Positions 1 through 29,008 of a stretch of DNA of 64,000 nt are shown one piece after another; the stretch's first letter is position 1; every line of letters starts with the position of its first letter. Both the position numbers and the translations under genes were made by a program. Source of the DNA: Massalongia carnosa (lineage: Eukaryota); contig OZ287073.1 of the NCBI GenBank assembly GCA_965645245.1, forward strand, positions 2,356,001-2,420,000, written 5' to 3'. The notes below the pieces were generated by a model, which saw only the letters and a program-made list of their open reading frames with translations, did no database searches and was not told where the DNA came from.

Positions 1-2844
1 ACCAATAAAAGAGGCAAAGCGACAGAGCGAAAAACCTCACTTCTGGCTCTGGTCTCCATCGATATTTGCGGTCCTTTGCCTGCCTCTCGAGAAGGATACA
101 CATACTTTTTGGAAATTGTGGACAACTATTCTAGAAAGATATGGTCCATTCCACTCAAAAGGCGAGACGAAGCACCAGGTGAATTGCGAAATTGGAGAAT
201 AAAAGTCGAATTACAAAGTGCACAAAGTCTATTGGCTGTACGGAGTGACAATGCCACCGAGCTGAAGGCTACTCTTGATGAATGGTGCTCCTCAATCGGT
301 ATTATTCCGCAATACACCGTTCCTCATATGTCTATTCAGAACGGAGTCGCCGAGCGAGCAATTCGTACCACCGAGAACTCGGTGCGAGCCATGATAAAGG
401 ACGCAGAACTCCCAATCGAATTCTGGAAGGAAGCCATGGAAACTGATGCATATCTTCGGAATCGCACGGGATGCGGACCGATCATCGACGGCTATGCTAG
501 CACACCGGAAGAAGCCTTCACGGGCGTCAAGCCATCCATTGATCACATTAGGGTATGGGGATGCAAATGCTATTCGTACGTCGATCCCAAATCGCTACCC
601 GCGGGGGACAGAAGAGACAAGTTCATGGACAGAGGCAGAATCGGAGTCTTTATGGGATATGTAGAAGAGACCACTAAACAGTATCGTCTCTGGGCACCCA
701 ACATGGGAAAAATCATCAGAAGCCATGTCGTAAAATTTGATGAAAATTTAAAAGGTGGCAGCGTTGATTTAAACTTGCGGAAGCAGACACCCAACGTGCT
801 AGCAGAAAGACGGCCAGTAGGAAGATCACAAAAGACAAAAGAAACGAAAATCAGCGAACCCGCCAAATTAGTAGAAAGATTTTCGCATGTGGAGGTTCCT
901 AGTCAACAGAATCAAACTCATGACCAACCAAACCCGAAAGATGATGTCACTCAAAACGTACCACCAATCCCAACTTCCGAAGAGTCGCCCATAGCGAATG
1001 ATTCAATCCCAGCCGCAGCTGTGCCTAAGGCTAGCACTAGCATATTCTCTCATGTTGCAATCCCGAAGCGAAAGCGATCTGATGAAGACTCAGTTCCCGA
1101 AGAACCGGCTTTCAAAATACCACGCGCTTTTCTAGCGCTGTTCGCCGACGATAATAACGAGGATGAAGATGGCTATCTCAAATTCGAATCTGCCCTATCG
1201 GCTGGTGCTTCTTCATTTGAAAGAAACATACCCGAGCCTAAGTCTTACAAGGAAGCAGTAAATGATCCGATGTGGGGGGAACTATGGAAAGAAGCAGTGA
1301 ACACCGAGATCAAGGCGCTCATCGGTAATAAGACTTGGAAAGAAGTTGTTCCACCTCCCAAAACGAACATCGTCACCTGCAAATGGGTGTTTAAAGTAAA
1401 AAACAACCTCGATGGCTCATTGGAGTAGTTTAAAGCAAGATTAGTCGCCCGTGGGTTTACTCAAAAATACGGCATCGACTATGAGGACACTTTCGCCCCC
1501 ACGGTAAGATCAGATATCCTACGTGCAGTGCTTGCCATAGTAGCGATGGAAAACCTGGAATGTCATCAAGTGGACGTGAATAACGCATTTACCCAATCAA
1601 CCTTGAAAGATGTCATTTACATGACCGCACCGGAAGGAGTAAACGTTGCCCCTGGTAGAGTTCTTCAGATTCTGCAAAGTCTGTACGGTTTAAAGCAGTC
1701 CGCCAGAGAATGGAATAGCCGCTGTACAAATGAGCTGACCAAACTAGGCTTCATTCAATGCTCATCTGACCCATGCCTATTCACTCATCCTAAAAAGGGA
1801 ATCATCATATTCATGCACGTAGATGACCTGGTGATCGCCTCCAAAATGATGAAAGAGATCGATTGGTTCAAGAAAGAGTTCAATGCTGCCGTTAGCATCA
1901 AGGACCTAGGAGAAGTGTCGAAGGTTCTGGGCATACGAGTAACCAGAGATCGGAAAAATCGAACTCTTCGAATGGACCAGACGCATTATCTCAAAGATGT
2001 GATGGAGAGAACACATATGAGCGCTGACAAACATAGGCCTACCGAAATTCCAATGAACGGCTATGATTCATTGCGACCGGCTGGAAAAGATGATAAGCGC
2101 ATAGATCAAAGAGAATATCAGCAAATTGTTGGAAGCCTGATGTACGCGGCAATTCATACGCGGCCAGATATAGCTTTTGCTCTTGGAAGGCTAAGCCAAT
2201 ATCTCAGTGATCCAGCTGCTCATCACGGTCATGCACTAAAGACGCTGCTTAGATACGTTCGGTCCACCATTGACATCGGTATACTGTATGGGGCTGGGGG
2301 GAATCATGGCCAAGGCCTCATTGGGTATTCCGACTCAGACTACGCAGCTGATAGGCTCGAAAGAAAATCGATCTTGGGATACGTGTACATGCTAGGGGGA
2401 GGGCCTATATCGTGGATGAGCAGAAAGCAAAAGTCGGTTGCTACGTCTACAACGGAGGCAGAATACATGGCCTTATCAACTTGTGCTAAGGAGGGTTTAT
2501 GGCTCGTTCAGCTGATGAAAGACATAGGCTTCGAGAAATATTTCAGTCATAACGTCAATATTCGTGAGAACTTGACGCATCAAGCTGACTCCCCGATGCG
2601 GTTAAAAGGAGATAATCAAACCGCTATCCAACTGGCAAAAGATGCTCACATTCATGATAGATCTAAGCATATCGACGTTGCCTATCATCACATTCGGGAC
2701 CTGCACAAGCGAAATCGAATTCAGGTCGAGTACATACCCAGCGGAGAGATGATTGCCGACGGCCTAACCAAGCCTCTAAATAAGCCCATCTTCAATCGGT
2801 TCATTAGTCAATTGGGACTGCAAAAAATGGAAAGAGTAAGGTAG
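1..2844 (+). pseudogene. Ty1/copia pol (integrase-RT-RNase H), runs off the left edge, one in-frame stop
   Basis: The frame is open from base 1 (SIDICGP...VRSDNATE...QNGVAER integrase core). WVFKVK..LE*FKARLVARG contains a TAG at 1426-1428 and the same frame continues through SLYGLKQS, HVDD (YVDD variant), SDSDYA, TEAEY, KHIDV and ADGLTK. Confidence 0.93.
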
Positions 2845-2863
2845 TATCGCACCGCAGGGGGAC

Positions 2864-3053
2864 TGTTGAATGGCGGTTGCGATTATGATTATAATGGCTT
2901 GTTGGGCTCACTGCGTGGATAGCGGGTAGTCTAATCTTCTCTAGGAAGGTTTTAGGTTTAGCGTGCTTTGTCCTTCGGTGAAAAGTTTGCTCTTTTCCTT
3001 TCAGATAGCTATATAGTCAATGCGATTACCTGCAACCAGAGTCTCCTTTTAAC
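2864..3053 (+). repeat. 3' LTR of the copia element at 1-2844 (right end approximate)
   Basis: Polypurine tract AGGGGGA just after the ORF stop, followed by TGTTGAA at 2864. No partner LTR in the window to fix the right end. Confidence 0.55.
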
Positions 3054-3171
3054 TAGTTTAAAGAATTAAAACAATTCAAGATTCATGCGACGAAAATCGA
3101 AAATTTACTGACGAAACAATTTCGAAATAAATATCTCACAAACGGCATATATTATAATAAATCAATCAAAA

Positions 3172-4038
3172 TGTGACGAAGCGAGATAGTGAATAGATTT
3201 CTACCATTGCGCCACCTGTCCTTCCCGACCAAAAGGCACAATACTTAGTCCGCAGACCAAGCTCTATTCTACTATAACTGGGTCTCCTGCTATGTTTGCT
3301 GTAGGTCCTGCCGTCCGCACCACGCTTGGTCGAACCGTTACACTACCGCCCGTCTAGCTGCGGCTAGCCCCTAGCCGCTTCCAGTTATAGTTAGCCCCGA
3401 AGAATGGGCTCTTCTTAGCGTACCGCCCTCGCCGATCCGACTTAGAGAGTTTTCATCCAACGCTTTCCCGTTTCGTCCTAGCTTCAGTCCGTCGAAGCAA
3501 GGCGAAAAAGCGAGGAACTCAGGTCAGGAATCGAACTCACGACTAGTACACCGATTGATGACTAAGTATTCTGTGACGAAGCGAGATAGTGAATAGATTT
3601 CTACCATTGCGCCACCTGTCCTTCCCGACCAAAAGGCAGAATACTTAGTCATCAATCGGTGTACTAGTCGTGAGTTCGATTCCTGACCTGAGTTCCTCGC
3701 TTTTTCGCCTTGCTTCGACGGACTGAAGCTAGGACGAAACGGGAAAGCGTTGGATGAAAACTCTCTAAGTCGGATCGGCGAGGGCGGTACGCTAAGAAGA
3801 GCCCATTCTTCGGGGCTAACTATAACTGGAAGCGGCTAGGGGCTAGCCGCAGCTAGACGGGCGGTAGTGTAACGGTTCGACCAAGCGTGGTGCGGACGGC
3901 AGGACCTACAGCAAACATAGCAGGAGACCCAGTTATAGTAGAATAGAGCTTGGTCTGCGGACTAAGTATTGTGCCTTTTGGTCGGGAAGGACAGGTGGCG
4001 CAATGGTAGAAATCTATTCACTATCTCGCTTCGTCACA
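3172..4038. mobile_element. 867-bp foldback (palindromic) insertion: X-core-X-revcomp(core)-revcomp(X)
   Basis: 3172-3571 is the exact reverse complement of 3639-4038. The 67-bp spacer 3572-3638 is a direct copy of 3172-3238. Ends are TG...CA, flanked by CAAAA at 3167-3171 and 4039-4043. Confidence 0.85.
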
Positions 4039-5045
4039 CAAAAAGGGACGAACGATTTCATAAATCTCGATAACTTAAATTGAGAAAAAGTTCTTCCTAT
4101 GCAGACAAGGACACAAAAAAATTAATTGTTCAAAAATCAACAGTTGGACGCATTCGAAATAAAATATCAGAAAAAACAAAACGATTTTAAAATAGAAAAT
4201 GAACGTTGTCACAAGAAAATCTAAAAGAAGACTTCGATCAAATATCATGTGAACAAAAATCAATACAAGTTCACCTTACATACTTAGAAAACTCATATGA
4301 GAACGACTTGTCAAACAATCTCGACGAGCTTTTGCGAAAAAAAAACATGCTGAAGTAGTGTAGTCGTGCGTGCTAATGGAAGGTAGTGGTATGTGATTAT
4401 AGATGGCGAACTGAGCAGTGAACACACACACACACAAACGTCTGAATGGACCTACGACTGCATAGACATGAAAAGAACTCGACGACTGAACGACTGAACG
4501 ACTAGTTAATGCACGAAATGAACATGTGTCGATGACTACGTGACACGACGACGATGATGACAGCGTAAGTGATAGAAGATGATGTCCGGAGATGATGAAG
4601 AAAACGCCAGCAAAAAACCCGTTTTATCTCCACATAGGCCTGCCGTGTCACCTGACTATAGATGACACGTGTCGCCCTACCACAATGCGACGTTAAACTG
4701 AACGAAATTCTACGAAGACAAATGTTTGATTCATTTCAGCGACAAACAGGAATCAAAATACAACTTCAAAAGTCGAGAAAGAGCAGAAAACGAGTTAATA
4801 CGTCGTGGCTAGACTCGCTAGAAAGAAAATAAATAGAAAAACCAAATCTCTCGTAACGAATATCTTGTCAATAATTGTAACAATGACAACGATCGAGCAT
4901 AAGAGAATATCGGCGATAATAGGAGTCGGAAAAAAAAGTAGCATTATGATTAGTCAACTCGCATACGTAGAAATTATCCGACAAATATTACCGCTTAACA
5001 GAAATCGAGAACAGGAATCCATAGCAAACCAGTCTTTCGAAATAA

Positions 5046-5655
5046 TGTAATACTGATGGCGCTAGAAGGATACGTGATCGCCTACGGCGGTTGCGGGATT
5101 AACTAGCATGAGCCAGGCCGTAGTACTTAGACGCACAGCCGTCGAGGTTGACACGACGCCACCTTGCTATACAACCCCGAATCCTACGTTCTTATAAGAG
5201 GGACAGTAGACACTAGTCCTTATGGGTTATAATGCTCAGTGTGACTGCTAATAGATTGGTAGGTGCTAAAGCTAAAAGCTGATTCCCTGAAGATGGGAAT
5301 CGAGCTTTCTATATACCCCTTGGGGTCCTATTTACTAACTACTTGTCTGGTTACCTGTCTGCCTTGTTGCCTTCAGCTGAGGTCTAGTAGATAGCCTTGC
5401 TGCCTTCAGCTGAGGTCTAGCAGATAACCTTGTTGCCTTCAGCTGAGGTCTCCTAGGCGTCCCAGGCCTCCCATGAGATCGAGGCTTATCTGAATAGCTT
5501 CAGTTGCTGCCTAACAAACTGGTAAGGCTGATTGCTGATGGCTTAGTATTGCTATCCGCCTTATCATGACTAAGCATCCGGATTATCAGTCACCCGGTCT
5601 TCTTGGGTGAGTCATCCCAGGAGCTAGCGCAGTCCTGTATTGCCGAGCTATTACA
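5046..5655. repeat. LTR-like segment with an internal 33-bp tandem repeat
   Basis: Inverted ends TGTAATA...TATTACA; about 2.7 copies of GCCTTGTTGCCTTCAGCTGAGGTCTAGTAGATA at 5361-5451; TA-rich; no matching TSD. Confidence 0.45.
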
Positions 5656-6312
5656 GTTCTAGACTGCTTACAGATCAAACACCTGTCGAGGCCGTGGTGG
5701 TAGATTGCCATGGAGTAAGGCGAACTCCTGTGGAGAAGCCGTGAACTCTATATGGGATCTGCTGGCCTACTCGGAGCTACTCGATCTCTTGATGGATCAA
5801 GAGTTGTAGCAGGAGGCACGGCTAGCTGGACGCAGCTTGAGCTCGGCCTCCCCGGTGTAAACTTCAGCTTCCACCTTTATTGCTACGTTGGTAGTGATGT
5901 CGGCTGAATCAACCTACATGACCTTGTGGTCTAGACCTTGTGTCTAGAGGCAGGTCCGCAGTGTAGATAGAGATTCAGTCGGAGGTAACCTTCCATCGCT
6001 ACGTTGGTAGTGGTGACGGCGAAATGAAGCTACATAGCCTCGGCGTCTAGCCTTTATGTTTAGAGGCAGGCTAGTAATGTATTGAGGGATCTAGCCGGAG
6101 GTAGAAGTGTTCTACCTTGCAAGGCAAGATCTAGAAGGCTGCTCGAGGCTGACTAGATGATCCAGCGAACGCTAAGTTCGTAGATGGATCCTGAGAGATG
6201 GTTGGATGTAAGGCGATAAGGTCAGATGTGGGTTGCAAGGCTCCTAAGGTTCCAAGGCTCCCAAGGCTATAGGCTTGGGATGAGTAGGATAAATACCAGA
6301 ACGAATCCTGTA

Positions 6313-8218
6313 TTCGTGCCCCACACTTTCGCTCGGTCGACTCGTATAGTGCTAGCCAGCCATACAGCCAGGACCAGCCATACAGCCAAAAATCAACTAT
6401 CCTACATACATCGAGGTTTTTTTCAGCAATTCCTTCATGATCATCATCCATCTTTTGTGACTATTCATGCTTCTAGTCATAAGCATCTTTCTATGCGCTT
6501 TTGACTGCCTAACCACTTTGGTAAGAGCCGTACAATAACGCTTTTCCCATGCGACGTTTCGCTCTTTCTCCCTTATCTCCTCCTGCTCCTCCCTACCACG
6601 AACCATTGAACGGGCCTCACCAACAGTAAGTACACCTCCGTGATGAAGAATCTTATTGGCCTCTCGTTTACGAGCTTTCCGAGCAGTTTGGGCCTTGATT
6701 TGTTGTTCCCAGCGTTGTTCCAGAAGATCGCCTTTTCGAACCTCGGCAACAGCTCCCTTTACAAATTTGCTAACAATTTGTACGAGGTCATCCGAGCAAG
6801 CTGAATGCGTCATGATTTCTGTGGCTACTGTGGCCAACTGTTGCACGGTTCGAGGGGTTTCTTGTACAGATAGGGGGGCTGTATGAGACGGAGTTGACTC
6901 ACGAGGAGGGGGAGGAAGAAGTTCTCGAACTTTGTCGAGAACAATGCCTGGATTGAACGGAATCAAGCCTGTTTTTCTCCAAGCAGACTGTATGGTGGAA
7001 GGTTTAAAAGCCAGCGATCGAAACTTGCTAAATGCATTCAGAAATTCGACTTTGGAAAAGGTTTGATCTCCATTCTGAATTGCTTCATTGACGGCCTCCG
7101 AATGCCAGTGTTTCAGAGGTTGAAAAACACACACATCCAATAGTTGTAAGAGATGTGTGGTGTGAGATGGTAATCCGAATGGAATGATGTTTTTCGTTTC
7201 ACAATATTCTAGAAATTCTCGAGTATGATGAGATCCATAACCGTCCATTATCAAAAGTCTCCAAGCCCCCTCTCTTATTTTTTCAGTGTGTTTGTCGAAA
7301 TGCTTGATCCATTGCAAACTCAACCAGTCATTTGTACAGCCTAATTCAGCTGTAGAAATGACTACATCATTGCTCAGATCGTTTTTGACCCAGGGAGCGA
7401 GGATGTTGATGCCAGACACAATTAAAAAAGGGGGAATGTCCTGACCAGCCCCGTTGATACACTCCACCGCTGTCAGCGATTCTCGATTTGATGGATCGGA
7501 ACTGTATGATTGTCGAGAAGAATCTGCTGTGATTATCCAATCACTTCGTGCCATACCAATACGAAACCCAGTTTCATCAAAATTCCACTGATCCTTCGGA
7601 TTTATTCCATACTTGTTCACTACTTCTTGATATTTTTCAAAATGCCCCATCAATAACTCCAAATCATGCGCATTTTTGCGCTCAGCAGCGAGAGGCTTAC
7701 GTTTAACCTTGTAAAGATCTGACTGACGTTTTAGCCATCTTTTGATCCAATGCGAGCCGAGAGGAGGAGGAGGCGTCGAATCGGAAGCCGTTTGACGAAG
7801 AATGGAGTATACAGCCACTTCCACCATATGCAGACGAGCCGGAATGTCCAAAGAATCCAGTTTCAAAAGATATAGACGTAGGGCCAACTCCTGATCGGGT
7901 TTTAGACGTCTATTATGCAGTCCTCGTACTTTCGTTTTAGATGACACCCCTTTGACCCGAGAACGAAGTCTTCCTCTAGGTACATTAAATTCTCGCGCAA
8001 TTGCACTGAGTTTGGCGTTTTTGCGTGAGTTTAAGGCGTCAATGGCCTTTGCAATACGATTTTCAATTATAGTATAAGATTCAGGCATGATGGTGGTGGA
8101 TAATGAATTTTTCAAAGCTGGTGGGTAGAAATTTGAAGATTTTGGCTGTATGGCTGGTCCTGGCTGTATGGCTGGCTAGCACTAAGCGAGTCGACCGAGC
8201 GAAAGTGTGGGGCACGAA
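6313..8218 (-). mobile_element. pogo/Fot1-family (Tc1/mariner superfamily) DNA transposon
   Basis: About 80-bp TIRs (TTCGTGCCCCACACTTTCGCTCGGTCGACTCG... with internal CAGCCATACAGCCA repeats), TA on both sides (6311-6312, 8219-8220), and a transposase ORF inside. Confidence 0.93.
6397..8088 (-). CDS. pogo/Fot1 DDE transposase (HTH + CENP-B HTH + DDE_1)
   Basis: Uninterrupted ORF from ATG 8088: AIAREFNVPRGRL HTH, NFDETGF, LIMDGYGSH, HLLQLLDVCVF (usual motifs are DGHGSH and QPLD). Confidence 0.9.
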   Translation of the reverse strand: MPESYTIIENRIAKAIDALNSRKNAKLSAIAREFNVPRGRLRSRVKGVSSKTKVRGLHNRRLKPDQELALRLYLLKLDSLDIPARLHMVEVAVYSILRQTASDSTPPPPLGSHWIKRWLKRQSDLYKVKRKPLAAERKNAHDLELLMGHFEKYQEVVNKYGINPKDQWNFDETGFRIGMARSDWIITADSSRQSYSSDPSNRESLTAVECINGAGQDIPPFLIVSGINILAPWVKNDLSNDVVISTAELGCTNDWLSLQWIKHFDKHTEKIREGAWRLLIMDGYGSHHTREFLEYCETKNIIPFGLPSHTTHLLQLLDVCVFQPLKHWHSEAVNEAIQNGDQTFSKVEFLNAFSKFRSLAFKPSTIQSAWRKTGLIPFNPGIVLDKVRELLPPPPRESTPSHTAPLSVQETPRTVQQLATVATEIMTHSACSDDLVQIVSKFVKGAVAEVRKGDLLEQRWEQQIKAQTARKARKREANKILHHGGVLTVGEARSMVRGREEQEEIREKERNVAWEKRYCTALTKVVRQSKAHRKMLMTRSMNSHKRWMMIMKELLKKTSMYVG

Positions 8219-9116
8219 TAGTATTCGTTAGCAATTAGTCTTTATTCTATGAACAACCTACATTTGGGTCTCGGACGAGATATCTTAGTCTAAGCACTTC
8301 CACATCCATTAGTTCTTTGGATCACGTATAGTCTCGGAGACCAGCACGTAGTAGCTATCTTCCACCTCTCACGCTGAGCATTTCCCCTTTCGAGATCAGT
8401 GTCGCTCGTGATTAGCTTACTGGTCTCGTAGCCCATTACAACTGAAGGCAGCGGAAGAATGTCTGAACACATGTGGTGAGGTTTCAGGATAGTTTGGAAT
8501 AATAGGCCACGGTTCTATTCAACATGCAGGGCAGTTTCACTGCAAGAGAGCCTGTTAAATACTAACCCGATCAGGAAGCGTGGGAGGATGCGAGGTAATT
8601 CCATGACAAATAGTGTCATGGCGATAGTATAATGCCAGGGACTTGGGGGAAATTGGATCAACGGCTGGATTGGGACTAGTTCCGTTCGCCAGAGTCTTAT
8701 ACTTGCCCACGTTGGATTATTTGTTTCTTTTCTCCTTGTCGAACGTCTTGTCCACCTAGCTAGACAATTAAGTAATACGTTTGCACAATCTGAATTTCTA
8801 CCTGACCTCGCACCGTGACATAAGTAACGCGATTGTTTCAATCGATGAAACAATTAAAAACTTTCTTCAATTTCTGCAGCATTTCGAATACTGTTTGATC
8901 GTCGTGTATTATTCATTTCTTCAATTGTCGAAGGTTTTCAATCATCAAAGAATTCGTTATCTTCATTTCATCATTTGTTTCTTGAATTGTTGAGATAATC
9001 GATTTTCGTCGAAGTGAGAATTCAGTCTCGATATCTGTAAATCGTGTCATCGCTGTAGAAAAAGCGTTCTTCGATGTCTGATTTTAGTTTTTAATGACTG
9101 ATGTCAATATTGTGAC

Positions 9117-9544: not shown

Positions 9545-9861
9545 ATTGTGATGTTCTTTAATTCTGATTTTGATTCTTCTGATTCTTCTGATTCTTACGA
9601 TGAATTCTTTTTTATTTTTCCCGTAGAATAACAGAATAAAATGAATAACCTTGTTTGTAATATTATGATTTATCTAAAACTAATCTATAGAAACAATAGA
9701 AACGAATACAAACAAAATGAATAGAAAAAACACAATCGATCCCCGATGTCGTTTCTATATATCTTGTACTGCACTAGCCCTCATGTGACATAGTCGGTGG
9801 ATTCTTCTCGTGACTGCAGAAACAAAATCGAAGGTGCGGGAATGGACGGGCGGCGCCGAAT

Positions 9862-12800
9862 TTATCCGAGTGCCGAGGTCTTACCGAGTAGAATCGTGAC
9901 AGCCTCGGCCTCCTCGTACTTCTCCTGCCTGTCAAGCACCGACGCCAGGTTGCTCAAGCTCGTCAGCGTGCTAGGGTGCTCCGTCCCCAGCGCCTTCTGC
10001 CTCAGCTCCAGCGTCCGCCGGTTCATCGCCTCGGCCTCCTCGTACTTCCCCTGCCCGAAAAGCACCAAAGCCAGGTTGCTCATGCTCGTCAGCGTGTCGG
10101 GGTGCTCCGTCCCTAGCGCCTTCTGCCTCAGCTCCAGCGTCCGCCGGCTCATCGCCTCGGCCTCCTCGTACTTCCCCTGCCTGTCAAGCACCCACGCCAG
10201 GTTGCTCAAGCTCGTCAGCCTGTCGGGGTGCTCCGTCCCCAGCGCCTTCTGCCTCAGCTCCAGCGTCCGCCAGCTCATCGCCTCGGCCTCCTCGTACTTC
10301 CCCTGCCCGAAAAGCACCAAAGCCAGGTTGCTCATGCTCGTCAACGTGTCGGGGTGCTCCGTCCCTAGCGCCTTCTGCCTCAGCTCCAGCGTCCGCCGGT
10401 TCATCGCCTCGGCCTCCTCGTACTTCTCCTGCCTTTCAAGCACCGACGCCAGGATGCCCATGCTCGTCAGCCTGTAGGAATGCTCCGTCCCCAGCGCCTT
10501 CTGCATCAGCTCCAGCGTCCGCCGGCTCATCGCCTCGGCCTCCTCGTACTTCCCCTGCCTGTCAAGCATCAACGCCAGGGTGCCCATGCTCGTCAGCGTG
10601 TCGGGATGCTCCGTCCTCAGCACCTTCTGCCTCAGCTCCAGCGTCCGCCGGCTCATCGCCTCGGCCTCCTCGTACTTCCCCTGCCTGTCAAGCACCGACG
10701 CCAGGTTGTCCATGCTCGTCAGCATGCGGGGGTGCTCCGTCCCCAGCGCCTTCTGCCTCAGCTCCAGCGTCCGCCGGTTCATCGCCTCGGCCTCCTCGAA
10801 CTTCCCCTGCCTGTCAAGCACCGACGCCAGGTTGCCCATGCTCGTCAGCGTGTCGGGGTGCTCCGTCCCTAGCGCCTTCTGCCTCAGCTCCAGCGTCCGC
10901 CAGCTCATCGCCTCGGCCTCCTCGTACTTCCCCTGCCTGTCAAGCACCGACGCCAGGTTGCCCATGCTCGTCAGCGTGTCGGGGTGCTCCGTCCCCAGCG
11001 CCCTCTGCATCAGCTCCAGCGTCCGCCGGTTCATCGCCTCGGCCTCCTCGTACTTCCCCTGGCTGGCAAGCACCGACGCCAGGTTGTCCATGCTCGTCAG
11101 CGTGCCGGGGTGCTCCGTCCCCAGCGCCTTCTGCATCAGCTCCAGCGTCCGCTGATTCATCGCCTCGGCCTCCTCGTACTTCCCCTGCTTGTCAAGCACC
11201 GACGCCAGGTTGCCCATGCTCGTCAGCGTGTCGGGGTGCTCCGTCCCCAGCGCCTTCTGCCTCAGCTCCAGCGTCCGTCGATTCATCGCCTCGGCCTCCT
11301 CGTACTTCCCCTGGCTGGCAAGCACCGACGCCAGGTTGCCCATGCTCGTCAGCGTGCCGGGGTGCTCCGTCCCCAGCGCCTTCTGCCTCAGCTCCAGCGT
11401 CCGCTGATTCATCGCCTCGGCCTCCTCGTACTTCCCCTGCTTGTCAAGCACCGACGCCAGGTTGCCCATGCTCGTCAGCGTGTCGGGGTGCTCCGTCCCC
11501 AGCGCCTTCTGCATCAGCTCCAGCGTCCGCCGGTTCATCTCCTCGGCCTCCTCGTACTTCCCCTGCCTGTCAAGCACCGATGCCAGGTTGCTCATGCTCG
11601 CCAGCGTGCTGGGGTGCTCCGTCCCTAGCGCCTTCTGCCTCAGCTCCAGCGTCCGCCGCTTCATCGCCTCGGCCTCCTCGTACTTCCCCTGCCTGTCAAG
11701 CACCGACGCCAGGTTGCTCATGCTCGCCAGCGTACTGGGGTGCTCCGTCCCTAGCGCCTTCTGCCTCAGCTCCAGCGTCCGCCGGTTCATCGCCTCGGCC
11801 TCCTCGTACTTCCCCTGCATGTCAAGCACCCACGCCAGGTTGCCCATGCTCGTCAACGTGTCGGGGTGCTCCGTCCCCAGCGCCTTCTGCCTCAGCTCTA
11901 GCGTCCGCCGGTTCATCGCCTCGGCCTCCTCGTACTTCCCCTGCCCGTCAAGCACCAACGCCAGGTTGCCCATGCTCGTCAGCGTGCCGGGGTGATCCGT
12001 CCCCAGCGCCTTCTGCGCCAGCTCCAGCGTCCGCCGGCTCATCGCCTCGGCCTCCTCGTACTTCCCCTGGCCGGCAAGTATCGCCGACGTGAGTGCAAGG
12101 CTGCCTATAACTGTTGAGTCTTCCTCGTTCAAAATCCGACGTTGAGTACCTAGGGCTTCTAGGCTTCGGCCTAGAGCCAAATTATACATTCCTTGAGTAT
12201 ATAGATACCATGCTGTGTTATAAAGAATTTTAGCTTGCTGAAGAGAACAATGCTGCTTCGAATACTGATACCCTAGGACTATCTCTGCGTGCGGCAACAG
12301 CTCTCTACAAATCTTCCAGTTCTGGTGTTTACCGTTTGGAAAGGACTCAGATAACAACGTTACGGCCTCCTCTTCCCATTTCAATATCTCACCGTGTATA
12401 CGCAACCACGTTCTTGTCGCCAGCTGCACAAGCCGATGCATTTCAAAGCATTCGCCATCGGCTTCGGAAGCAATTAAAGCGAAATCATTCAAAGGGGCTA
12501 ACGCGTCTTCTAAAGCCAAACGGTTGTCATCCTTGCAAAGAAGGAACTCCGGAATTCCTTGTCGATCGAGAACGCTCATAAGCGATAAAAGCTCGGCGGC
12601 CGGAGGAAAGCTTTTTTTGATCTGGTCAAAGGAGATTTGCCACGTTACGAGGACCGAATTCGGCACACTAGGATCCCTCCGAAGATCCCCTGTATCCGCT
12701 AATAATATATTCTCGTTCTGTCGAGCGTATGTCAAATACTTCGCGATTGTCATCCTCGTTTTTCGTACGCTAATATAAGCTGCAGCCTGTGTAATTGCAA

Positions 12801-14677
12801 GTGGGAGACGCTCCAAAGCCTCTACGAGAGCAGTGATATCATCTTCACTTGATTTGTCATCGGGTAATCGCTTGCGCAGTAGAGTTTTGGCATCTCCTTC
12901 TTCCATCGGTAATACATCGATGACACGCTCGATTCTGTTGGTTAACCTAAACGCTGCCTGCCTGTTTCGGGAAGTGACAAGTATTGATCCTTTGGAGGTT
13001 TGGGGAAGATACATACACAATGGTAAAGCATATTGATTAATAGCAGTCCCTTCAGAGGCCTCTTTTCGATGGTTTAAAAACATGTCTGCGTCATCAGCAT
13101 TATCCAGCACTAGCAGCCACTTAGGATGATCTTCATCGGTAAGCCAGTCGGAGACAACCTGAAGCGTGTTGATTTTAGGATCGTCCCAGCCAGGTAGATT
13201 AAGTCTTCTTGCGATATCTCCGTATGCTTGATTGAATCTTTCGAAGGTTCTGGCATGCACCCAGAATATGCTGCGATTTGGATGTTTGCTTCGATACCGA
13301 TAGCAATATTCAATGGCTATCTGCGATTTACTGTGTTTGCACATATTATTAGACAAATTCTGTTTTTATGAGCGTCAAAGGGTGTACCCGACGCCTCCTA
13401 TCCCGGTAAGGGCAACACGCTGCTCCGTCTCCAACTTTTCATCGATTTCGCTGATGATGTCCTCTCGCCCAACAAACTGGTTGTCTTGGCCGAATGGCAC
13501 CAGGAAGAGCGTCTTATCTTTGCATAAGCCTGCTACTCGAAAAGTATTAGCTTAATTCATGACCGCCTCAATCCATTTTACGATATCCACAGCTAGTAAG
13601 CATATGTTCCAATGCAATTCTCATACCCAAAGCACTGCACCTCACTTATTACCGGCGACTACGTACAAGCAACTCCAGATAGTGGCTGCAAAGACGGTAT
13701 GCTTAGCGCAGCAATACGTGCTCTCTCCACTGCAGCCTTTACCGCAGACTTCACAAGCCGCCCGAGGTTGAACGAAACTTGCTGGTAATCATCCCCCTCC
13801 GCACTTTCGAACTTGCAGACTTCGGTGTGATCTGCATCCATAGGTATCTGCCTTTCACGGAGTCCAGTGAGACCAAGGGTGGCCGATTTCTGGTCCACGA
13901 TCTGCAGCTGTTAGTTGAAGTTTTCTGGTATACAATTTTCAGTGCGTACGAGACCTAACTTCCCCACCGGAAGCGTTTCGAAGAAGCTTAAAACATGGTA
14001 ATCCTCAAGTTGATGCCGGAAGTCTCCCACAAGTGTGTCAGAGAACAATGAATCCTTCTTCAGCGTCTCCATAAACGTGTTTGACGGATTTCGAAGTACA
14101 CCTCTTACTATAGAGGCAGCGATGTCCCCTAACTTCGCGAAGTTGCCTCCCTGATGAGGTGTAGCGAAAAATGCGATTCCATATGTAGCTTCGCGGATAG
14201 ATTTGTAGGAATCGTCGAGTTTAGCTTCTACCAATGCTCGCTTGACAATGATGCCTCCCAAGCTGTGAGCGACAAACACAATGGGTCTGTTCTCTTCGTC
14301 GTCCCGCTTGGATGCAATTCGGTTAAGAAGGTTTGTAGCTTGCTCTCGAACTCCTGCGATCGAGGTCTCGAAAGCGACATTAGCATTGTAGCCAAACAAC
14401 AAAACTCGTGCAGATGGCAGTTGTGAAGGCAAAAAGTCTCTTAGCCATAGCTTATCTTGAACCGTCCATGTTGCTTCCGCGTGAAATTCGGTGTTAGTCG
14501 GGTTGAGGCCATGCACCGCAATAATGCTAGTTTACATGATAGAGTCAGCGTGAGGGGTTCCGAAAAGGATCAATCAAGCACAACCTACTCAACATCAGGA
14601 TTCTCTGGACTTACTAGCACCCTAAGGAAGTTCTTAGAAATGCGAGGAGTGTTCTGTAAATCATTAGTTATGAACAT
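9862..14677 (-). CDS. Fungal NLR: alpha/beta-hydrolase (SesB-like lipase fold)-NB-ARC-TPR, about 1504 aa, 5 exons
   Basis: Exons 14677-14589, 14526-13950, 13901-13667, 13532-13388 and 13330-9862 join through GT-AG introns with CTAAC/CTAAT/CTGAC branch sites into one 4515-nt frame. Motifs: IIAVHGL, AHSLGG nucleophile elbow, FVGRE, GIGGVGKS P-loop (split by an intron), LLVLDNAD, LPLAI, MHRLVQ, then 42-aa TPR repeats. The start codon is uncertain. Confidence 0.9.
9901..12075 (-). repeat. Coding tandem array of 17 complete plus 1 partial 126-bp TPR repeats
   Basis: Unit xxQGKYEEAEAMxxRTLELxQKALGTEHPxTLTSMxNLAxVL, counted from the translation. Confidence 0.95.
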
Positions 14678-14745
14678 GTAAAACGGAGAGATTGATTTTC
14701 CATATTGAAAAGATGGTACGGTGTATCGTCCTGGTAATATATATG

Positions 14746-17700
14746 TGTCAACCTTTCACATGAATTCAGGAAGGATGGAAAAAGGCTGTATTCTGTATGT
14801 GGGAAATGCCCACATCTAGCTACCTATATAGAAGGGAAAAGGGGTCATGGCAGCAACGATATCAACCCCGGCAAATTGAGGGGTAAAGGTGTGGAAGAAA
14901 TGGCGTAGCTTAGCGGCATCTGCCGCGACAGGGGGTCGAGGATCGGCGATGAGAATCGACCACATTCAGGTTTGACACACCCCCCCAGGATGCGAAGCAT
15001 CCTGACCAAAAGAAGAAAACATGAAGCAATTCCCATTCGAGAAAAAGGTGCAATTCTTGCAAAATCAAAATGAGATGCCAGTGAAAAGAAATTTCTGCCC
15101 GCCGAGAGGAATTCCGCCCGGTTCACTCCCGCCTGCCCCATTCCTAAATCAGATACTTGATATCAATAAGGCCTAGCATTTCCAGAAAGGAACGATGCTT
15201 TTGCGGAGGCAAGGGCTTGGTGAGACCATCTGCCGTCATCCGGTTGGTCTGTAGATAACCCACATTGAGATGACCAAATTGAACGCTCTGTCTCAACCAC
15301 AACTGAGCGATGTCCACATGCAGAAGTTTGGTCGTAACTTTGGGCTGCTCCGACGTCAGAATGCGGATGGTCTGCATGTTATCATTGTAGATTTTGACCG
15401 AATGGTCGTTGTCGAATCCTAGCTTGCCAAAGAAATTAATCCACCAGATGCATGCCTTGCCGGCATGGAGAAGGGCAAGCAATTCTGCCTCTGTCGTCGA
15501 AGTTGAGACGGTCGCCTGCTTCCTGGCAGCCCAGTCGATCATGCCGCCATACAGCTTGAATGTGAAACCCTCGTAGCTGCGTCGCTCGGGACTATTTGCA
15601 AAGCTGGCATCGGCAGTGTTTTCGAAGACATGCTTTGCCGAGAGCTGATCATCATCCGGAGACTGCACGGTAAGCTCGCCACCTCCCGAGGGTGAGTATT
15701 TTATCGCCAGATACTTAGTCGCGTCTAGATATTGCAGGCAGTGATTTGCCGCGTCTAGATGCTCCAGACCGGGACAGGTGAGATGCTCTGCCAATTTGGA
15801 GGCAGCTTTGGCAACGTCCGGCCGAGTGATATTCGCGGGATAGCAGATCGATCCTACCTTTTTACGATATTCCTGCCTCAGGGATTGGTCGACTGACCGA
15901 GGCGAGTCCGAGTCTGGGCTAGCTGCCGAGGCAGAGGTGAATGCGATGAAGTCTGACGGTAGCGGGGATGACGGAGATTTAGACGTGTCTATCTCGTATT
16001 CAATTGCCAACTTGTCCATGTAGGAGTCTTGACAAAGATAAATGTCGCCAGCATTTCGAACAATCCGTACACCGAGAAAGAAGCTCAATTGGCCCATGTC
16101 GCGTAATTCAAATCGAGCATTCAACTTCTGAATCAGCAGATCTACGTCTGCAGCTCTACTTTCCGGAAAGATGATGACTATGTCATCCACATAGAAAAAG
16201 AGGATGATGCCAGAGTAGTCGGTAAAAAGGCAGGGCTCGCCAGGGATCTGCTGCATGTCCAATGAGGTGAGTGCTTTGGAAAATTCTCGTAGCCATAGTA
16301 GAGGCGATTTTCGAAGCCCGTACAAAGCCCGGACCAGGAGCAAGCATTTCCCCTCGATGACGAAACCATCTGGCATATACACGTGGATGACCCTATCGGC
16401 TTTGGCATTTAGGAAGGCATTGATCGCGTCAAACTGCCTTGTCCTGAGTCCGAAAGCAGACGTCAGGGCCATGAGGCACCTGAAGATCTTAATTGCCAGC
16501 GTAGAGGCGTATACATCTTCTGCCGAGACTTCTTCCAAATCCCCTCGGACTACCAGGCGTGCCTTGTATTTTACTAGAAAGCCATCCGGGTCGAACTTGT
16601 ATGTAAATACCCACATTAGTGGAAGCGGCTTCTGATTGGAAGTTTTGGGAATGACGACGAAGGTGTCCATTCTGAGAAGAGTCTGATATTCAAATTCGGC
16701 TGCTTTGCGAAATCCTTCTGCATGGGGATGTCGAAGCATACCTCGCCACTGCTTCGGCGGCGGCGGCAGGCTGTCCCTATGCAATCTGGTCGACCTAGTG
16801 GTCACTGCAAATGCCAAATAAACTTCCTTCATCCCGTCATCCAATCCCGAGTTTGTATTCCCTAGTGGTTCCGAAGCGATGCCGAGTGGTCTGATGCCGA
16901 GAGGTGCTGCGAGATTTGCGAATTTCTGCTTCGGTTTTCTGACTCGTTTTCCTTCGACGATATTGCTGACATCCAATTTGGCAGATCCGATATTCCTACT
17001 GGGACCGGTGCCAAAAGATTCGGCAATGCCGAGAGGCGTCCGGCCGGTTTCTGGCAGATCAGTCGGTAGATCTATGCTACTCGGAAGACTGTCTTTTACC
17101 ACCCGTTTGTCGCGAGATGTTGACGAAGAAGATGTAGGTGCCGGTGCTGAAGTCGATGGAGGCGGAGTGCTCTCGGGAGTCGGAAGATGCTGCTGACTCG
17201 GTGAATGTCTCGGCATGATAGGGACGTCTTTCGCAGTCAACGACGCGGGCACATCCAGTGCAGACGAATTTTCAACCGACGAAGAAGGATCAGCAAATGA
17301 CCGATTGCGCACAGATGTCGCCAGCCATTGCTCCTCATTTTCTGCCAAATCAACAATGTAGGGAGCAGCATCGAAAACTTCCAGCTCTACAAACTCGGCC
17401 ACCTTCTCTTTGGGAATCAGATCCTTTTTGACGTATGTGGAGAAGGTTTGATCCTCATCAAAGATAACATCTCTATATCCGCTGACCGACCAGGTCTCGG
17501 GATTCCAGACTCGATAAATGTTTGTAGAATCGTATCCGACCAGATAGCCAACAAATGCTCGAAGGGCTAGTTTCTCACTTTTTGGCGGGGCATCTTTACC
17601 TTTCAGAAGGGGATATGCCTTGCACCCAAAGACCTTGAGATGACCAATTTCGGAATTGTATGGCTTCTTCAGGGCTCGGTGCAGGGAGATGTGAGGCGAT

Positions 17701-20576
17701 TTCCAATCTAGTCCTTTTGTCGGCGTCCTATTTAGCAAGTCTCCAGCAGCGAGATAGCACTCGGGATACAGATCTTCTGGCAAATCGGCGCCGATGCGAA
17801 TGCATCTAGCCTTCTGAGTCAAAAGGCTTCCTGCCCTCTCAGCCGACCCATTCTGCTCCTTAGTATGCTTTGCGGACCATTCAAACGCGATTCCCTGTTC
17901 CTTGACGAAGTCCTGAATGACGTCTCCAACCGACGTTTCCTGATCCATTCGAAAGGTCTGAACGAAAAGACCGAATTCGGCTCCGAGTCGATCGCACCGA
18001 TTTATGACATGCTTGACAATCCTAAGTAGTGTCTCCTGCTTATGATCTTGCAGGGGGAAGACCCAATGAAACGAGGTGAAATCATCCTGAAAATGAGCGA
18101 CGCAGGTGGTCCCATCGAAAGCAGTCCTTTTCAAAATAATGAGGTCAAAATGAAGACGCTGGAATGGTTTAGTGGCTTTAGTAGCCGAGACCCTTGATAC
18201 TAGTGTATGCATTTTTGACAATGCGCACGTCTCACATTTCACTGTCTTTGGAGCATCTTGACCACTGTTACCTCTTGAAATCTCAATCATCTTCTGATTC
18301 GACAACTGGTTAATGACTTCCGGTTGGCAATGTCCTAGGCGGAGATGAAATTTCCATGGCGTGCCTTTTGGGATTGCATCTGCCGAGACTCGGGAACCGA
18401 CGAAATTTGCGAAAGCACCAGCGTGGCCAACGGGACGATACTCGGCAGTGTAGAGACCGAAATGCTCTTCCAATTCGAAGATTGAAATACCCTTCTTCTC
18501 GACCGTGTCCGTATGCATGTTCCACAGAAATCCATCCTTTTTCAGCTTGCTGACCGAAATCAAAGTCACCGATGAGTCGGGAACGTATGCTGTGTGTCGA
18601 AAATGCAGAGGCTGATTCTTCCCTTTTAGTGTCCCATTCACCAACATTGTCCCAAAACCTTCAATAAGGAGATCTCCGTCGGGAGTCGAGACCCACTCGT
18701 ATGCCGGGATGATTTCGTCAATAAAACGGGATTTGTCCCAGGTCAGATGATTGGAGCATCCCGAGTCGTAGGAGACGCTGAGATGAAGCAGATTGTCGCG
18801 ATCCGAGATAGTATTTCCAAAAGAGACTGGAGCATTCTCGACAACAGGGAGCTCGGCGGGAGCATTGCCATTGCCTCGGCCACGACCTCCATCTCCGCGA
18901 CCCCCTCGACCTCCACCTCTTCCTCTTCCTCGAGGTTTCAAAGGTTCATCAGGCTCGGAGATGCCGTTGAGAATGTCGGATGTAGCGGCGCGTTTGACAT
19001 ACCAATAAAGCTTGGAATTGGACCCGATTTTCTGTCGGATGTGGTCGCGTATCTCCTTATTGAATTTCCATCCCGAGATTCTAGACTCGACTGTCAAATA
19101 AGGGCATCTTTTCCAGGAGTGAGTTTCGCCGCAAAGGCATTCGTTATTGCTGTACTTGCTATCGTCAGAAGTGGAATTTCCCTGATCGGAAGACTGTCCT
19201 TGTAGAGAAGCGGAATTCGCCGAGAGCTGCTGACGACGACCAGTGCTGATTGCATTTTCTTCTATCTCGGTCCGATACTCATTGGCGGCCTCGAAGAATT
19301 TAAGGGGACGACCTGATACATTTCGTATCTTGATCCAGGTGTCGCAAAAGAATGGTGCCCATATCCGAGCGGCTTTCAGAAAGTGCTGAGTGTAGATATA
19401 CTCACTATAGATGGGTTCAACTTTCAAAGCAACGATTTCTTCCCTCAGCGTTTCCCATTGGCAGATCCAAGATTCGATCTTCCCTTTCACCGGGTGAGAA
19501 TTTCTCAACTCGTCGTATTGGCGATCGATCTGCCTTTGAACTTCGTCCGGACTCTTTTTGAACTTATGGGCCAGGGACTGAAGAATTTCTCGAACCGAGG
19601 ATGATCTGACATTCCTGGCGACATAATCTTTAGCCGACTCTAGGATGACCGTATGAACCTTCTCAATTCCCATGGCTGCGGCCCTGGCATCTGCCTGAAG
19701 CCCTCGATGTGACCGTTCATCTGCATTGTACGACTCCTTCTGTGATTCCGAGAGATCGGCATACCGAGAACATGGTTCGGGAATCAGGACCGGCGGGCCA
19801 TTTAAATCGCCGAGAACTGTCCCTTGAGAAGAACCTTGAGAAGCGACAATAGCAGGCGTAGGGATATTGGTAGAGTCAGTGCCAGGCGTATTAACCGGGA
19901 CGACTTTGACGTAATCACTGAATTTGGGAAATTTGGGAATGGTAGGTTCCGATTCTGATCCTTCCGGATCGACGTACTCCCATACCTGAGATCGTACTGC
20001 GATACCCTTGATTTCCGACAACCAGGAATTGTAGGTCCTAGGCGTCAGAGCCGAGACGATGAGTTTCCGAGACGATCCCGACGAGTAGTCTTCCATTTGG
20101 GATAACCGACCAAAGATGGAGACAGATGGGAAAAACAGGGAAACGACCAAAAAGGCAAAGGAAAACAGAAGCACGAGGAATAAATCAACTCTGCGATGCT
20201 CCATGAGAGATACGATAATTCCGGCGGCGATACTCAGCCTGCCTAGGATATTTCGGGGTCGATGAAGGCAGCGATAAATCAGCTTACCAATAACTAAAGT
20301 TAAGACGGAGGCAGCGAAAAATTCAGCTAACCCGGGCTCATAACTGTCAACCTTTCACATGAATTCAGGAAGGATGGAAAAAGGCTGTATTCTGTATGTG
20401 GGAAATGCCCACATCTAGCTACCTATATAGAAGGGAAAAGGGGTCATGGCAGCAACGATATCAACCCCGGCAAATTGAGGGGTAAAGGTGTGGAAGAAAT
20501 GGCGTAGCTTAGCGGCATCTGCCGCGACAGGGGGTCGAGGATCGGCGATGAGAATCGACCACATTCAGGTTTGACA
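14746..20576 (-). mobile_element. Complete Ty1/copia LTR retrotransposon, apparently intact and young
   Basis: 232-bp LTRs at 14746-14977 and 20345-20576 with no differences seen; 5-bp TSD ATATG; PBS GTTATGAGCCC next to the 5' LTR; G-rich PPT next to the 3' LTR; single long ORF. Confidence 0.97.
15144..20204 (-). CDS. copia gag-pol polyprotein (1686 aa)
   Basis: CLCGETHSWKRC knuckle, YDSGCS protease, H-H-C-C integrase zinc finger and DDE core (QNGSAER), YKARLV, LYGLRKS, YVDD, ADASF...TEAE...ADGLTK RNase H. Confidence 0.95.
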   Translation of the reverse strand: MEHRRVDLFLVLLFSFAFLVVSLFFPSVSIFGRLSQMEDYSSGSSRKLIVSALTPRTYNSWLSEIKGIAVRSQVWEYVDPEGSESEPTIPKFPKFSDYVKVVPVNTPGTDSTNIPTPAIVASQGSSQGTVLGDLNGPPVLIPEPCSRYADLSESQKESYNADERSHRGLQADARAAAMGIEKVHTVILESAKDYVARNVRSSSVREILQSLAHKFKKSPDEVQRQIDRQYDELRNSHPVKGKIESWICQWETLREEIVALKVEPIYSEYIYTQHFLKAARIWAPFFCDTWIKIRNVSGRPLKFFEAANEYRTEIEENAISTGRRQQLSANSASLQGQSSDQGNSTSDDSKYSNNECLCGETHSWKRCPYLTVESRISGWKFNKEIRDHIRQKIGSNSKLYWYVKRAATSDILNGISEPDEPLKPRGRGRGGGRGGRGDGGRGRGNGNAPAELPVVENAPVSFGNTISDRDNLLHLSVSYDSGCSNHLTWDKSRFIDEIIPAYEWVSTPDGDLLIEGFGTMLVNGTLKGKNQPLHFRHTAYVPDSSVTLISVSKLKKDGFLWNMHTDTVEKKGISIFELEEHFGLYTAEYRPVGHAGAFANFVGSRVSADAIPKGTPWKFHLRLGHCQPEVINQLSNQKMIEISRGNSGQDAPKTVKCETCALSKMHTLVSRVSATKATKPFQRLHFDLIILKRTAFDGTTCVAHFQDDFTSFHWVFPLQDHKQETLLRIVKHVINRCDRLGAEFGLFVQTFRMDQETSVGDVIQDFVKEQGIAFEWSAKHTKEQNGSAERAGSLLTQKARCIRIGADLPEDLYPECYLAAGDLLNRTPTKGLDWKSPHISLHRALKKPYNSEIGHLKVFGCKAYPLLKGKDAPPKSEKLALRAFVGYLVGYDSTNIYRVWNPETWSVSGYRDVIFDEDQTFSTYVKKDLIPKEKVAEFVELEVFDAAPYIVDLAENEEQWLATSVRNRSFADPSSSVENSSALDVPASLTAKDVPIMPRHSPSQQHLPTPESTPPPSTSAPAPTSSSSTSRDKRVVKDSLPSSIDLPTDLPETGRTPLGIAESFGTGPSRNIGSAKLDVSNIVEGKRVRKPKQKFANLAAPLGIRPLGIASEPLGNTNSGLDDGMKEVYLAFAVTTRSTRLHRDSLPPPPKQWRGMLRHPHAEGFRKAAEFEYQTLLRMDTFVVIPKTSNQKPLPLMWVFTYKFDPDGFLVKYKARLVVRGDLEEVSAEDVYASTLAIKIFRCLMALTSAFGLRTRQFDAINAFLNAKADRVIHVYMPDGFVIEGKCLLLVRALYGLRKSPLLWLREFSKALTSLDMQQIPGEPCLFTDYSGIILFFYVDDIVIIFPESRAADVDLLIQKLNARFELRDMGQLSFFLGVRIVRNAGDIYLCQDSYMDKLAIEYEIDTSKSPSSPLPSDFIAFTSASAASPDSDSPRSVDQSLRQEYRKKVGSICYPANITRPDVAKAASKLAEHLTCPGLEHLDAANHCLQYLDATKYLAIKYSPSGGGELTVQSPDDDQLSAKHVFENTADASFANSPERRSYEGFTFKLYGGMIDWAARKQATVSTSTTEAELLALLHAGKACIWWINFFGKLGFDNDHSVKIYNDNMQTIRILTSEQPKVTTKLLHVDIAQLWLRQSVQFGHLNVGYLQTNRMTADGLTKPLPPQKHRSFLEMLGLIDIKYLI

Positions 20577-23467: not shown

Positions 23468-24479
23468 GAGCCCTCTTATCAGAGATGATCTCGTTGCTCG
23501 TTTGTAATAGACGCCAAGAGCATCATCATCACCCCTCGGTCTAGCACATAAACGAAACCAGAAGCTTGTCTCCCCGTCCTGTTTTCAGATCATCGAGGTT
23601 GGAACGATGATGATGACAAGACTTGAGCCTCTGCCTTAACTCTTCTGCATTTAAATTATTGACTTGAAGACCGAAATGACCGCCTATAGCTAGAAGATGA
23701 CGATAGCAGACGTGAGTTAACTCCTCTCCGTGGATAACTGCAGACATTATTTTTCTAATAGTGCCTAGATACTCTGCGTCACCTTTCATTCCTGCCACTG
23801 AGGCAGTCTTTTACAATCCGGCCTTCCTTTGAAGAATTAAGTGTGAAGGATTTAGCTTCAAGATAGACTACAAAGCCGAGGTCCAGCTCCCGGCTGGCGA
23901 TCCAGAAGACCCGACAGATTTTTCAGGTTCTAGCAAACGCGGCAAAGCTGCAAAAACCTCCAAGGACATCAAGACCCCGAAGGCCGCCAAAATCAAAAGC
24001 GCCAAATCCAACCTTGGACCGGTAGAGGCGGCCAATAAATCAGCGAAAAAGGCAGCCAAGGGAAGAAAAAGGTAGAGACCACATGTCATGTGGCAAATCC
24101 GCGCAGCACGGCTTTACCGTGGATAATCTAGCTATAGAGATGCACTAGCTAATTATGAATCAATGACCGACTGCAATCGACTTTCTCTTACTGTTTTCGT
24201 GACCCAAATCGATGTCCATTGTAGACTGGGACCCGGGCTTTTTGTCCAGCTTGCATCGAGTTTAAAAAGCATGATCGCCATCCCTTGATGTCGTTCTTTA
24301 GTGCACATATTCGACCGCGCGGTTCCAAAACATAAAAATAACACATATAAAAAACGGCGGTATGGTATAACATGATTGAGCTGATATTTTACGCTCAATC
24401 GGGGAAGGCCGCTCGATAATTAAGTATTATTTCATTTAGTAAGCAAACCTGCCCGTATTATTGAGTTTTGTCCTCAGAC

Positions 24480-28991: not shown

Positions 28992-29008
28992 GTGAACCAC
29001 CGGAACAC

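Follow-up and report, generated by a model that had tools for sequence, protein, structure and literature searches.

Miniature terminal-repeat retrotransposons (TRIMs) that carry 5-bp duplications and occur with many solo long terminal repeats (LTRs) are known from fungi, Helenus being one example (PMC10886601, in its excerpted text). Self-priming like that of Tf1 has been proposed, in the excerpt of PMC4600332, for Tj1, Tcn1 and other elements from fungi to vertebrates, and the self-primed minus-strand strong-stop DNA of retroviruses has been described as a dead-end product in vitro that is suppressed by nucleocapsid protein (PMC6088434). Here we describe a perfect palindrome at positions 3172-4038 of a 64,000-nucleotide stretch of the Massalongia carnosa assembly GCA_965645245.1 (contig OZ287073.1, forward strand, 2,356,001 to 2,420,000; “the window” below means this whole stretch). 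We tentatively favor the reading, which we hold to be slightly short of probable, that the palindrome is a reverse-transcriptase snap-back product of a TRIM-like element, integrated through two U5-type LTR ends with a 5-bp duplication.

The repeat family to which the palindrome belongs resembles the fungal TRIMs. It is small and non-coding and has many copies that look like solo LTRs; its short TG...CA LTRs would stand in direct order around a short internal region, the copy studied here is flanked by a putative 5-bp duplication, and mobilization is presumably in trans. It differs from Helenus in that no tRNA-like gene was detected in its LTR by ARAGORN or Rfam, and identity with that family, whose LTR is tRNA-derived, was ruled out on this ground. 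Its putative primer-binding site is complementary to its own LTR, being of neither the tRNA 3'-end nor the anticodon-loop type, and the copy studied here is palindromic whereas TRIMs have the order LTR-internal-LTR. Like the Tf1/sushi-type elements (Tf1, Tf2, Tj1, Tcn1), the family has 11 nt within its LTR that are complementary to a primer-binding site, here putative, next to the LTR end. Those elements, however, are autonomous, several kilobases long and of the Gypsy type, whereas the present one has no genes, and its transcript start and RNase H cut are putative. As in retroviral fold-back DNA, the minus-strand 3' end would fold back and be extended on its own strand; in contrast to that DNA, the proposed product has the whole internal region plus an LTR and is integrated in a chromosome. 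In the Foldback (FB) elements of Drosophila, long inverted arms composed of tandem subrepeats make up most of the element, whereas the arms here consist of a complete LTR and a retroelement internal region, with no tandem arrays. No integrated snap-back or inverted-dimer LTR element was described among the matches listed in our literature search, which is no proof of absence; PMC7084138, in its excerpt, concerns palindromic repeats in general and not palindromic LTR elements.

Architecture of the palindrome

The original prediction had described this locus as an exact modular fold-back without mismatches between its arms, and this was borne out. The sequence reads X(67)-core(333)-X(67)-reverse-complemented core(333)-reverse-complemented X(67), with zero mismatches between equivalent modules, and amounts to a hairpin-shaped insertion of 867 bases. 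X occurs at 3172-3238 and 3572-3638 and, as reverse complement, at 3972-4038, all three copies being identical, while the core at 3239-3571 is the reverse complement of 3639-3971. Measured as inverted arms, 3172-3573 and 3637-4038 are 402 nt each, 100% complementary and separated by a 63-nt loop. The smaller signals that had been predicted are likewise all present: X begins with TG and ends with CA, the 11-mer AATACTTAGTC (3240-3250) and its complement (3560-3570) delimit the core, and CAAAA stands on either side of the unit. Flanks that match over 5 bp at the same spacing were found at 63 of 63,123 window positions (0.1%), and when 5-mers of the local A-rich flanks are paired with each other, 120 of 28,122 pairs match (0.43%).

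As single-stranded DNA the palindrome has a folding energy of -569 kcal/mol, compared with a mean of -123 kcal/mol for shuffled sequences (n = 20; z = -69; 0 of 20 as good). Its coding capacity is limited to a single ATG open reading frame (ORF) of at least 40 aa, which is 42 aa long. Tandem Repeats Finder returned 0 rows for 3000-4300. An Rfam match to MIR9481 at 3529-3683 reached 48.6 bits, where the gathering score is 130; we read it as a generic hairpin match and rejected it.

Neither X nor the core has a further copy elsewhere in the 64-kb window. The element had no match by blastn among plasmids, an exact 27-mer and an exact 20-mer of X gave 0 matches in metagenome contigs, and the 27-mer gave 0 matches in prokaryote genome contigs and 0 in viral contigs.

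The repeat family and its self-priming layout

Logan contigs of four public runs were mapped to 2950-3660, that is, to the left half and the loop. Runs X1 and X2 are two samples under the same organism label, X3 is a lichen metagenome, and X5 carries another organism label. Matching contigs numbered 4212 (X1), 450 (X2), 345 (X3) and 109 (X5); those of X1 divide by identity into 1792 at 99% or more, 1800 at 95-99% and 620 at 90-95%. The unique flank at 3070-3141 was covered in X1 alone, at a depth of 695, compared with a summed depth of 1.4-1.9 million over 3190-3333 in the same run. Past 3342 the depth falls in all four runs, more steeply in X2, X3 and X5 than in X1, where 0.35-0.54 million remain over 3358-3573. 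In each of the four runs, loose ends with heterogeneous flanks (agreement 0.41-0.57) were found at two places, before 3171/3172 and behind 3342/3343. Among the matches listed these were 6+13 before and 26+8 behind in X1, 14 behind in X2, 5 before and 11 behind in X3, and 4 before and 5 behind in X5.

Because the loose ends with differing flanks fall at 3171/3172 and 3342/3343, the natural repeated unit is a 171-bp sequence with TGT...ACA ends, here called U (3172-3342), and not X. The predicted module boundaries did not hold in this respect, as X is the first 67 nt of the 171-bp LTR. U mostly stands alone, as solo LTRs do. Its termini, TGTGACG...CGTTACA, have the TG...CA form and a 7-bp terminal inverted match (TGTGACG versus TGTAACG, 6/7). 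The connection that had been drawn from the TG...CA ends and 5-bp duplication to an LTR-type integrase is supported by this LTR-like unit, by its varied flanks and by the LTR-internal-LTR junctions described below.

The 229 bp that follow U, here called V, are joined to it in other copies as well. The passage from U to V is bridged by X1 record 4 (8 differences), X2 record 14 (9) and X5 record 29 (6 plus 1 gap), and the passage from V to the start of a further U is bridged by X1 record 8 (3511-3624, 6 differences). X1 record 7 / X5 record 31 (0 differences) extend 30 / 29 letters past 3571, where the bridging criterion was 31. The bridging contigs therefore mark 3571/3572 as a normal family junction. 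Taken together, these pieces suggest that the family's normal form is U(171)-V(229)-U(171), a TRIM-like miniature LTR retrotransposon of about 571 bp. The locus itself holds one full U, the start of a second U in direct orientation (67/79 nt, 3572-3650) and one inverted U; 3572-3650 equals U positions 1-79 save at 3639, which is G and not C.

Allele frequencies show how the two arms are related. The window has T at 3283 and at 3297, and both are minority alleles: in X1, other letters account for 866,611 of 1,051,623 depth units at the first position and for 965,850 of 1,080,574 at the second, and in X3 and X5 non-window letters make up all or nearly all of the depth at both. Both arms carry 3283T and 3297T, and they match at 402 of 402 positions, compared with a typical family divergence of 1-10%. 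The arms are copies of one template. Two independent head-to-head insertions are very unlikely and were rejected on account of the shared minority alleles and the 402/402 identity.

Two further observations concern the family at large. One X1 contig (depth 874, 48 letters on its shorter side) joins the U end at 3342 straight to the U start at 3172; one LTR would here abut another, which happens where two solo LTRs are neighbors and at the junction of a two-LTR circle. V was matched with 0-1 differences over 100-172 nt by X5 record 31 (3429-3600) and X3 records 23-24. Near-identity of V across organism labels could reflect very recent spread, shared mycobionts or mislabelled mixtures.

Read in the putative sense direction, on the minus strand of the left arm or equally on the plus strand of the right arm, the LTR (3868-4038) is followed by one base (G, as at 3639) and then by AATACTTAGTC at the position of a primer-binding site. 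The complement of this 11-mer, GACTAAGTATT, lies inside the sense LTR at positions 93-103 (69-79 in the coordinates of U), and the 11-mer occurs in 1 of 20,000 shuffles of U. When a model leader of 111 nt is folded computationally, one 11-mer pairs with the other in the minimum-energy structure, at pair probabilities of 0.76-0.95. The layout appears to be the arrangement of Tf1-type self-primed reverse transcription. The inverted repeat that was predicted to bound the core is present, and it is better read as the start of R together with a putative primer-binding site that would pair with it. A TATA-like string, TTATAG, some 26 nt upstream of GACTAAGTATT suggests that a putative transcript start lies there. 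The other LTR boundary is adjoined, at the position of a polypurine tract, by GACGGGCGGTAG, in which 9 of 12 bases are purines.

We prefer the minus orientation because the plus orientation gives neither a primer-binding site nor a purine tract. A plus-orientation TRIM was rejected: behind U (CTACCGCCCGTC...) there is neither a TGG nor a stretch complementary to part of U, and no purine-rich sequence precedes X. No TGG-type tRNA primer-binding site was found beside the LTR end. ARAGORN found 0 tRNA genes in the window, and Rfam gave no tRNA match in 2000-6000 at E values up to 1. By eye, loose resemblances can be made out to an A box (TGGCGCAATGG, 3995-4005, plus strand), within the LTR's U5-R part, and to a B box (GAGTTCGATTCC, 3672-3683, plus strand), about 20 nt past the putative primer-binding site and outside the LTR.

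Table 1. Positions of the palindrome's parts and of transposable elements elsewhere in the window
Feature	Positions	Strand	Basis or remark
Left CAAAA, putative target-site duplication	3167..3171	.	Sequence; chance 0.1% (window), 0.43% (local flanks)
U, 171-bp LTR-like unit TGTGACG...CGTTACA, left arm	3172..3342	- (putative sense)	Contig depth, loose ends, termini
Complement of putative R start, inside U	3240-3250		
V, 229-bp internal region, left arm	3343..3571	-	Lower but repeated depth; bridged junctions; motifs
Complement of purine-rich tract, in V	3343-3354		
Complement of putative primer-binding site, in V	3560-3570		1-nt spacer at 3571
Second copy of X, first 67 nt of second U (copy of U5 and of R to R nucleotide 13)	3572..3638	-	Palindrome loop; turn-back point 3638/3639
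Right-arm internal region, sense orientation	3639..3867	+	Spacer G 3639
Putative self-priming primer-binding site, right arm	3640-3650	+	
Purine-rich tract GACGGGCGGTAG	3856-3867	+	
Right-arm LTR, sense, TGTAACGG...CGTCACA	3868..4038	+	
TATA-like TTATAG in right-arm LTR	3933-3938	+	
Putative R start GACTAAGTATT	3960-3970	+	11-mer complementary to 3640-3650
Right CAAAA copy	4039..4043	.	Sequence
Copia-type element, partial	76-2844		At window start
pogo/Tc5-type DNA transposon	6311-8220		81-bp terminal inverted repeats, 98% complementary; looks intact
Copia element	14741-20576		LTR pair, 237 nt at 99%
Copia element	54063-59340		LTR pair, at least 300 nt at 100%

Origin of the palindrome

The structure, the boundaries and junctions of the family repeat and the 11-mer complementarity are observed, and a possible route from these to the palindrome runs through an aberrant reverse transcript. 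A minus strand, after copying the LTR and the internal region, would continue through the primer-binding site into U5-R and would halt at the end of the RNA template, left there by the primer-generating RNase H cut at R nucleotide 12/13. Its 3' end would read ...GGCA. The terminal CA would snap back onto the TG with which this 67-nt stretch begins, and reverse transcriptase would then use the strand as its own template, adding first G3639 and the primer-binding site, then the rest of the internal region and a full LTR; the outcome would be arms of 402 nt around a loop of 63 nt. The hairpin strand could become a duplex if a second strong-stop DNA primed synthesis on the 3' LTR, a conjectural step drawn by analogy with first-strand transfer. 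Both termini of the 867-bp duplex would then be LTR ends of the U5 type (TGTGACG.../...CGTCACA), through which an LTR-type integrase provided in trans could insert it with a 5-bp duplication of CAAAA. The orientation of the element, its transcript start, the snap-back, the conversion to a duplex and integration as a unit are what we infer here.

Two details of the sequence fit this route. The turn-back at 3638/3639 coincides with R nucleotide 12/13, where a self-primed minus strand would exhaust its template, and G3639 fits a copy of C3571, while the family LTR has C at that position. We also considered two other ways of turning back. From a fold-back at the 11-bp inverted repeat itself one would expect C...C around the loop, and from a fork switch to the other parental strand or template G...G; the sequence has C...G, and both were rejected.

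Several points weigh against a snap-back origin. With the Tf1 cut, between bases 11 and 12, the minus strand would end in one C more than the model requires, so that the cut has to be placed one base later or synthesis has to stop one base before the end of the template. The snap-back pairing is of 2 bp only (CA on TG), and the conversion of the hairpin into a duplex that can be integrated requires further, conjectural steps. The transcript start is placed by sequence features, namely the 11-mer and the TATA-like string, and the tract at the polypurine position is only moderately purine-rich. As to the family, the contig comparison spans 2950-3660, that is, the left arm, left flank and loop; U-V-U was never found in one sequence, the normal form having been assembled from short contigs, and tandem (U-V)n arrays would yield identical junction contigs. 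The 5-bp duplication can be read at this locus alone, the other copies being represented by consensus loose ends, and no autonomous partner was found in the 64-kb window. The structure, as far as the assembled sequence can tell, appears to be real and unusual, with a proposed mechanism that draws on one locus and short contigs.

The principal alternative is a rearrangement in place, which we consider unlikely. An integrated U-V-U flanked by CAAAA would later have undergone two template switches during replication or repair, the first to the complementary strand, 67 nt into the 3' LTR, and the second back to the original template at the LTR terminus, with the result that the remainder of the 3' LTR was replaced by inverted V and U. 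Replication-based inverted duplication at short inverted repeats is known (PMC4689423, in the excerpt). The near-inverted LTR termini (6/7) would help here, as a nascent ...CGTCACA could re-anneal at ...CGTTACA and run on into the flank, so that the duplication is kept. For this reason the predicted movement of the element as a palindromic dimer, which is the reading we prefer, is unproven. The 100% arm identity and the shared minority alleles fit any mechanism in which the sequence is copied from itself. However, a rearrangement in place requires two precise switches, and it leaves the 11-bp inverted repeat unused as a switch point: a switch there would leave C at 3639, where G is observed. 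It also offers no DNA-level reason for a stop exactly at R nucleotide 12/13. If it were nevertheless true, the locus would be an ordinary local rearrangement within a repeat.

We regard as improbable a second alternative, in which 3572-4038 is a non-autonomous DNA transposon whose inner 400 bp were duplicated in inverted orientation. Such an element would have 79-82-bp terminal inverted repeats (TIRs; 82 nt at 98%), TGTGA termini and a 5-bp duplication, and it would resemble Ginger2/TDD, for which the excerpt of PMC2836005 gives termini of the form TGTNR, TIRs tens of bp in length (about 50-180 bp) and an integrase-like transposase that makes duplications of 4-5 bp. The predicted TIR pair is indeed present, the termini match TGTNR, and a 5-bp duplication is known from TDD-4 and TDD-5 (excerpt of PMC2836005). 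On the other hand, the abundant unit ends at 3342 and has a terminal inverted match of 7 bp, which makes the predicted rearranged TIR element less likely, and other copies show direct U-to-V and V-to-U junctions. The abundant unit and these direct junctions indicate LTRs and not the TIRs of Ginger2/TDD. Autonomous Ginger2/TDD copies encode a transposase resembling a Gypsy integrase and no reverse transcriptase. No integrase-like transposase was found in the window beyond the Copia integrases, and in fungi Ginger2 is represented by one vestige, according to the same excerpt of PMC2836005.

It is very improbable that the site holds an ordinary family copy which became palindromic through an artefact of assembly or amplification, such as a palindromic read. 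Perfect palindromes are typical of amplification and library artefacts, and a highly repetitive family invites misassembly. Nevertheless, the palindrome is internal to its contig and stands between unique flanks with a matching 5-bp repeat, the loop is element sequence and not adapter, and X1 record 1 (3027-3197, depth 695, 0 differences) links the left flank to the element. In X1 the bin past the turn-back (3646-3660) has a depth of 4827, although X1 may be the source sample of the assembly and is then not independent; X2, X3 and X5 have no cover there, and the absence of a contig proves nothing.

Returning to the integrated snap-back cDNA, the locus looks like the fossil of a copying error and not like a new kind of element. 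In its most specific form this reading is possible but doubtful: the fossil would be that of a reverse-transcriptase “dead-end” product, a snap-back cDNA of a self-priming TRIM that turned at the RNase H primer-cut site and was integrated by two U5 ends, from a family very abundant in a lichen-associated fungus and its relatives. If true, Tf1-like self-priming TRIMs exist and are highly successful in lichen-linked fungi, and fold-back cDNAs that are dead ends in vitro can be completed and integrated in vivo. The palindrome would mark, to the nucleotide, where the minus strand exhausted its template, and it would thereby predict the primer-cut site. Self-priming retroelements would own a built-in route to perfect hairpin copies, and such copies could mark the cut site in vivo and supply long double-stranded RNA against their own family. 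A 402-bp perfect inverted repeat is also likely to be a fragile site and is a possible source of hairpin RNA against a high-copy family.

Neighboring features of the window

Judged by its genes that resemble fungal NLR genes, the window appears to belong to a transposon-rich part of a filamentous fungal genome. The palindrome lies in a unique AT-rich spacer, about 115 bp past the end of a repeated Copia-related stretch. Depth drops at about 3058-3069, and loose ends there in the other runs resemble a Copia primer-binding region; the 22-nt consensus of those loose ends behind 3058, which has this resemblance, is absent from the window. The segment 2950-3058 is probably, from these sequence features, the end of a Copia LTR.

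The Copia element at 14741-20576 has an open gag-pol of 1686 aa, a 5-bp duplication (CATAT), a primer-binding region of the ATGAGCCCGG type and a G-rich polypurine tract, and both it and the element at 54063-59340 look, by their sequences, like recent insertions. The three Copia elements of the window were rejected as partners of the palindrome's family, with which they share neither the LTR ends (in Copia TGTCAAACC...) nor the primer-binding site (in Copia of the ATGAGCCCGG type). On the plus strand at 25467-29971, in-frame ORFs split by single stops give weak matches to RVT_1 and RVT_3 (RNase H-like); this remnant is not an evident partner, no LTR pair and no integrase having been detected there. 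Several inverted repeats of 26-45 nt occur at 24444-25124, directly upstream of this remnant, which may be a decayed non-LTR or DIRS-like retroelement. The pogo/Tc5-type transposon encodes a 572-aa ORF with DDE_1 and HTH_Tnp_Tc5 domains (6397-8115, minus strand).

Two regions contain arrays of conserved coding repeats. At 9776-12217, within an ORF on the minus strand (9862-13356), 18 tandem 126-bp units that are 90-96% identical raise the GC content to 66% and code for the TPR_10/TPR_12 repeats in a protein of 1164 aa; the array resembles those of fungal NLR-type genes, and its internal repeats are highly conserved. At 44462-48595 (minus strand), a NACHT / NPHP3_N ORF (46919-48595) adjoins a WD40 ORF with 15 tandem 126-bp units that are 95-97% identical (44640-46703), and an ORF resembling the SesA/PigL_N N-terminal region lies at 48615-49124.

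At the end of the window (63801-64000) an 85-nt unit occurs twice, 115 bp apart and 91% identical, in an array that may run past the window end. Other ORFs match a DUF676 serine-esterase at 13911-14516 and OrsD (orsellinic acid cluster protein D) at 51632-52087; the latter hints at a secondary-metabolite context typical of lichen-forming or related fungi.

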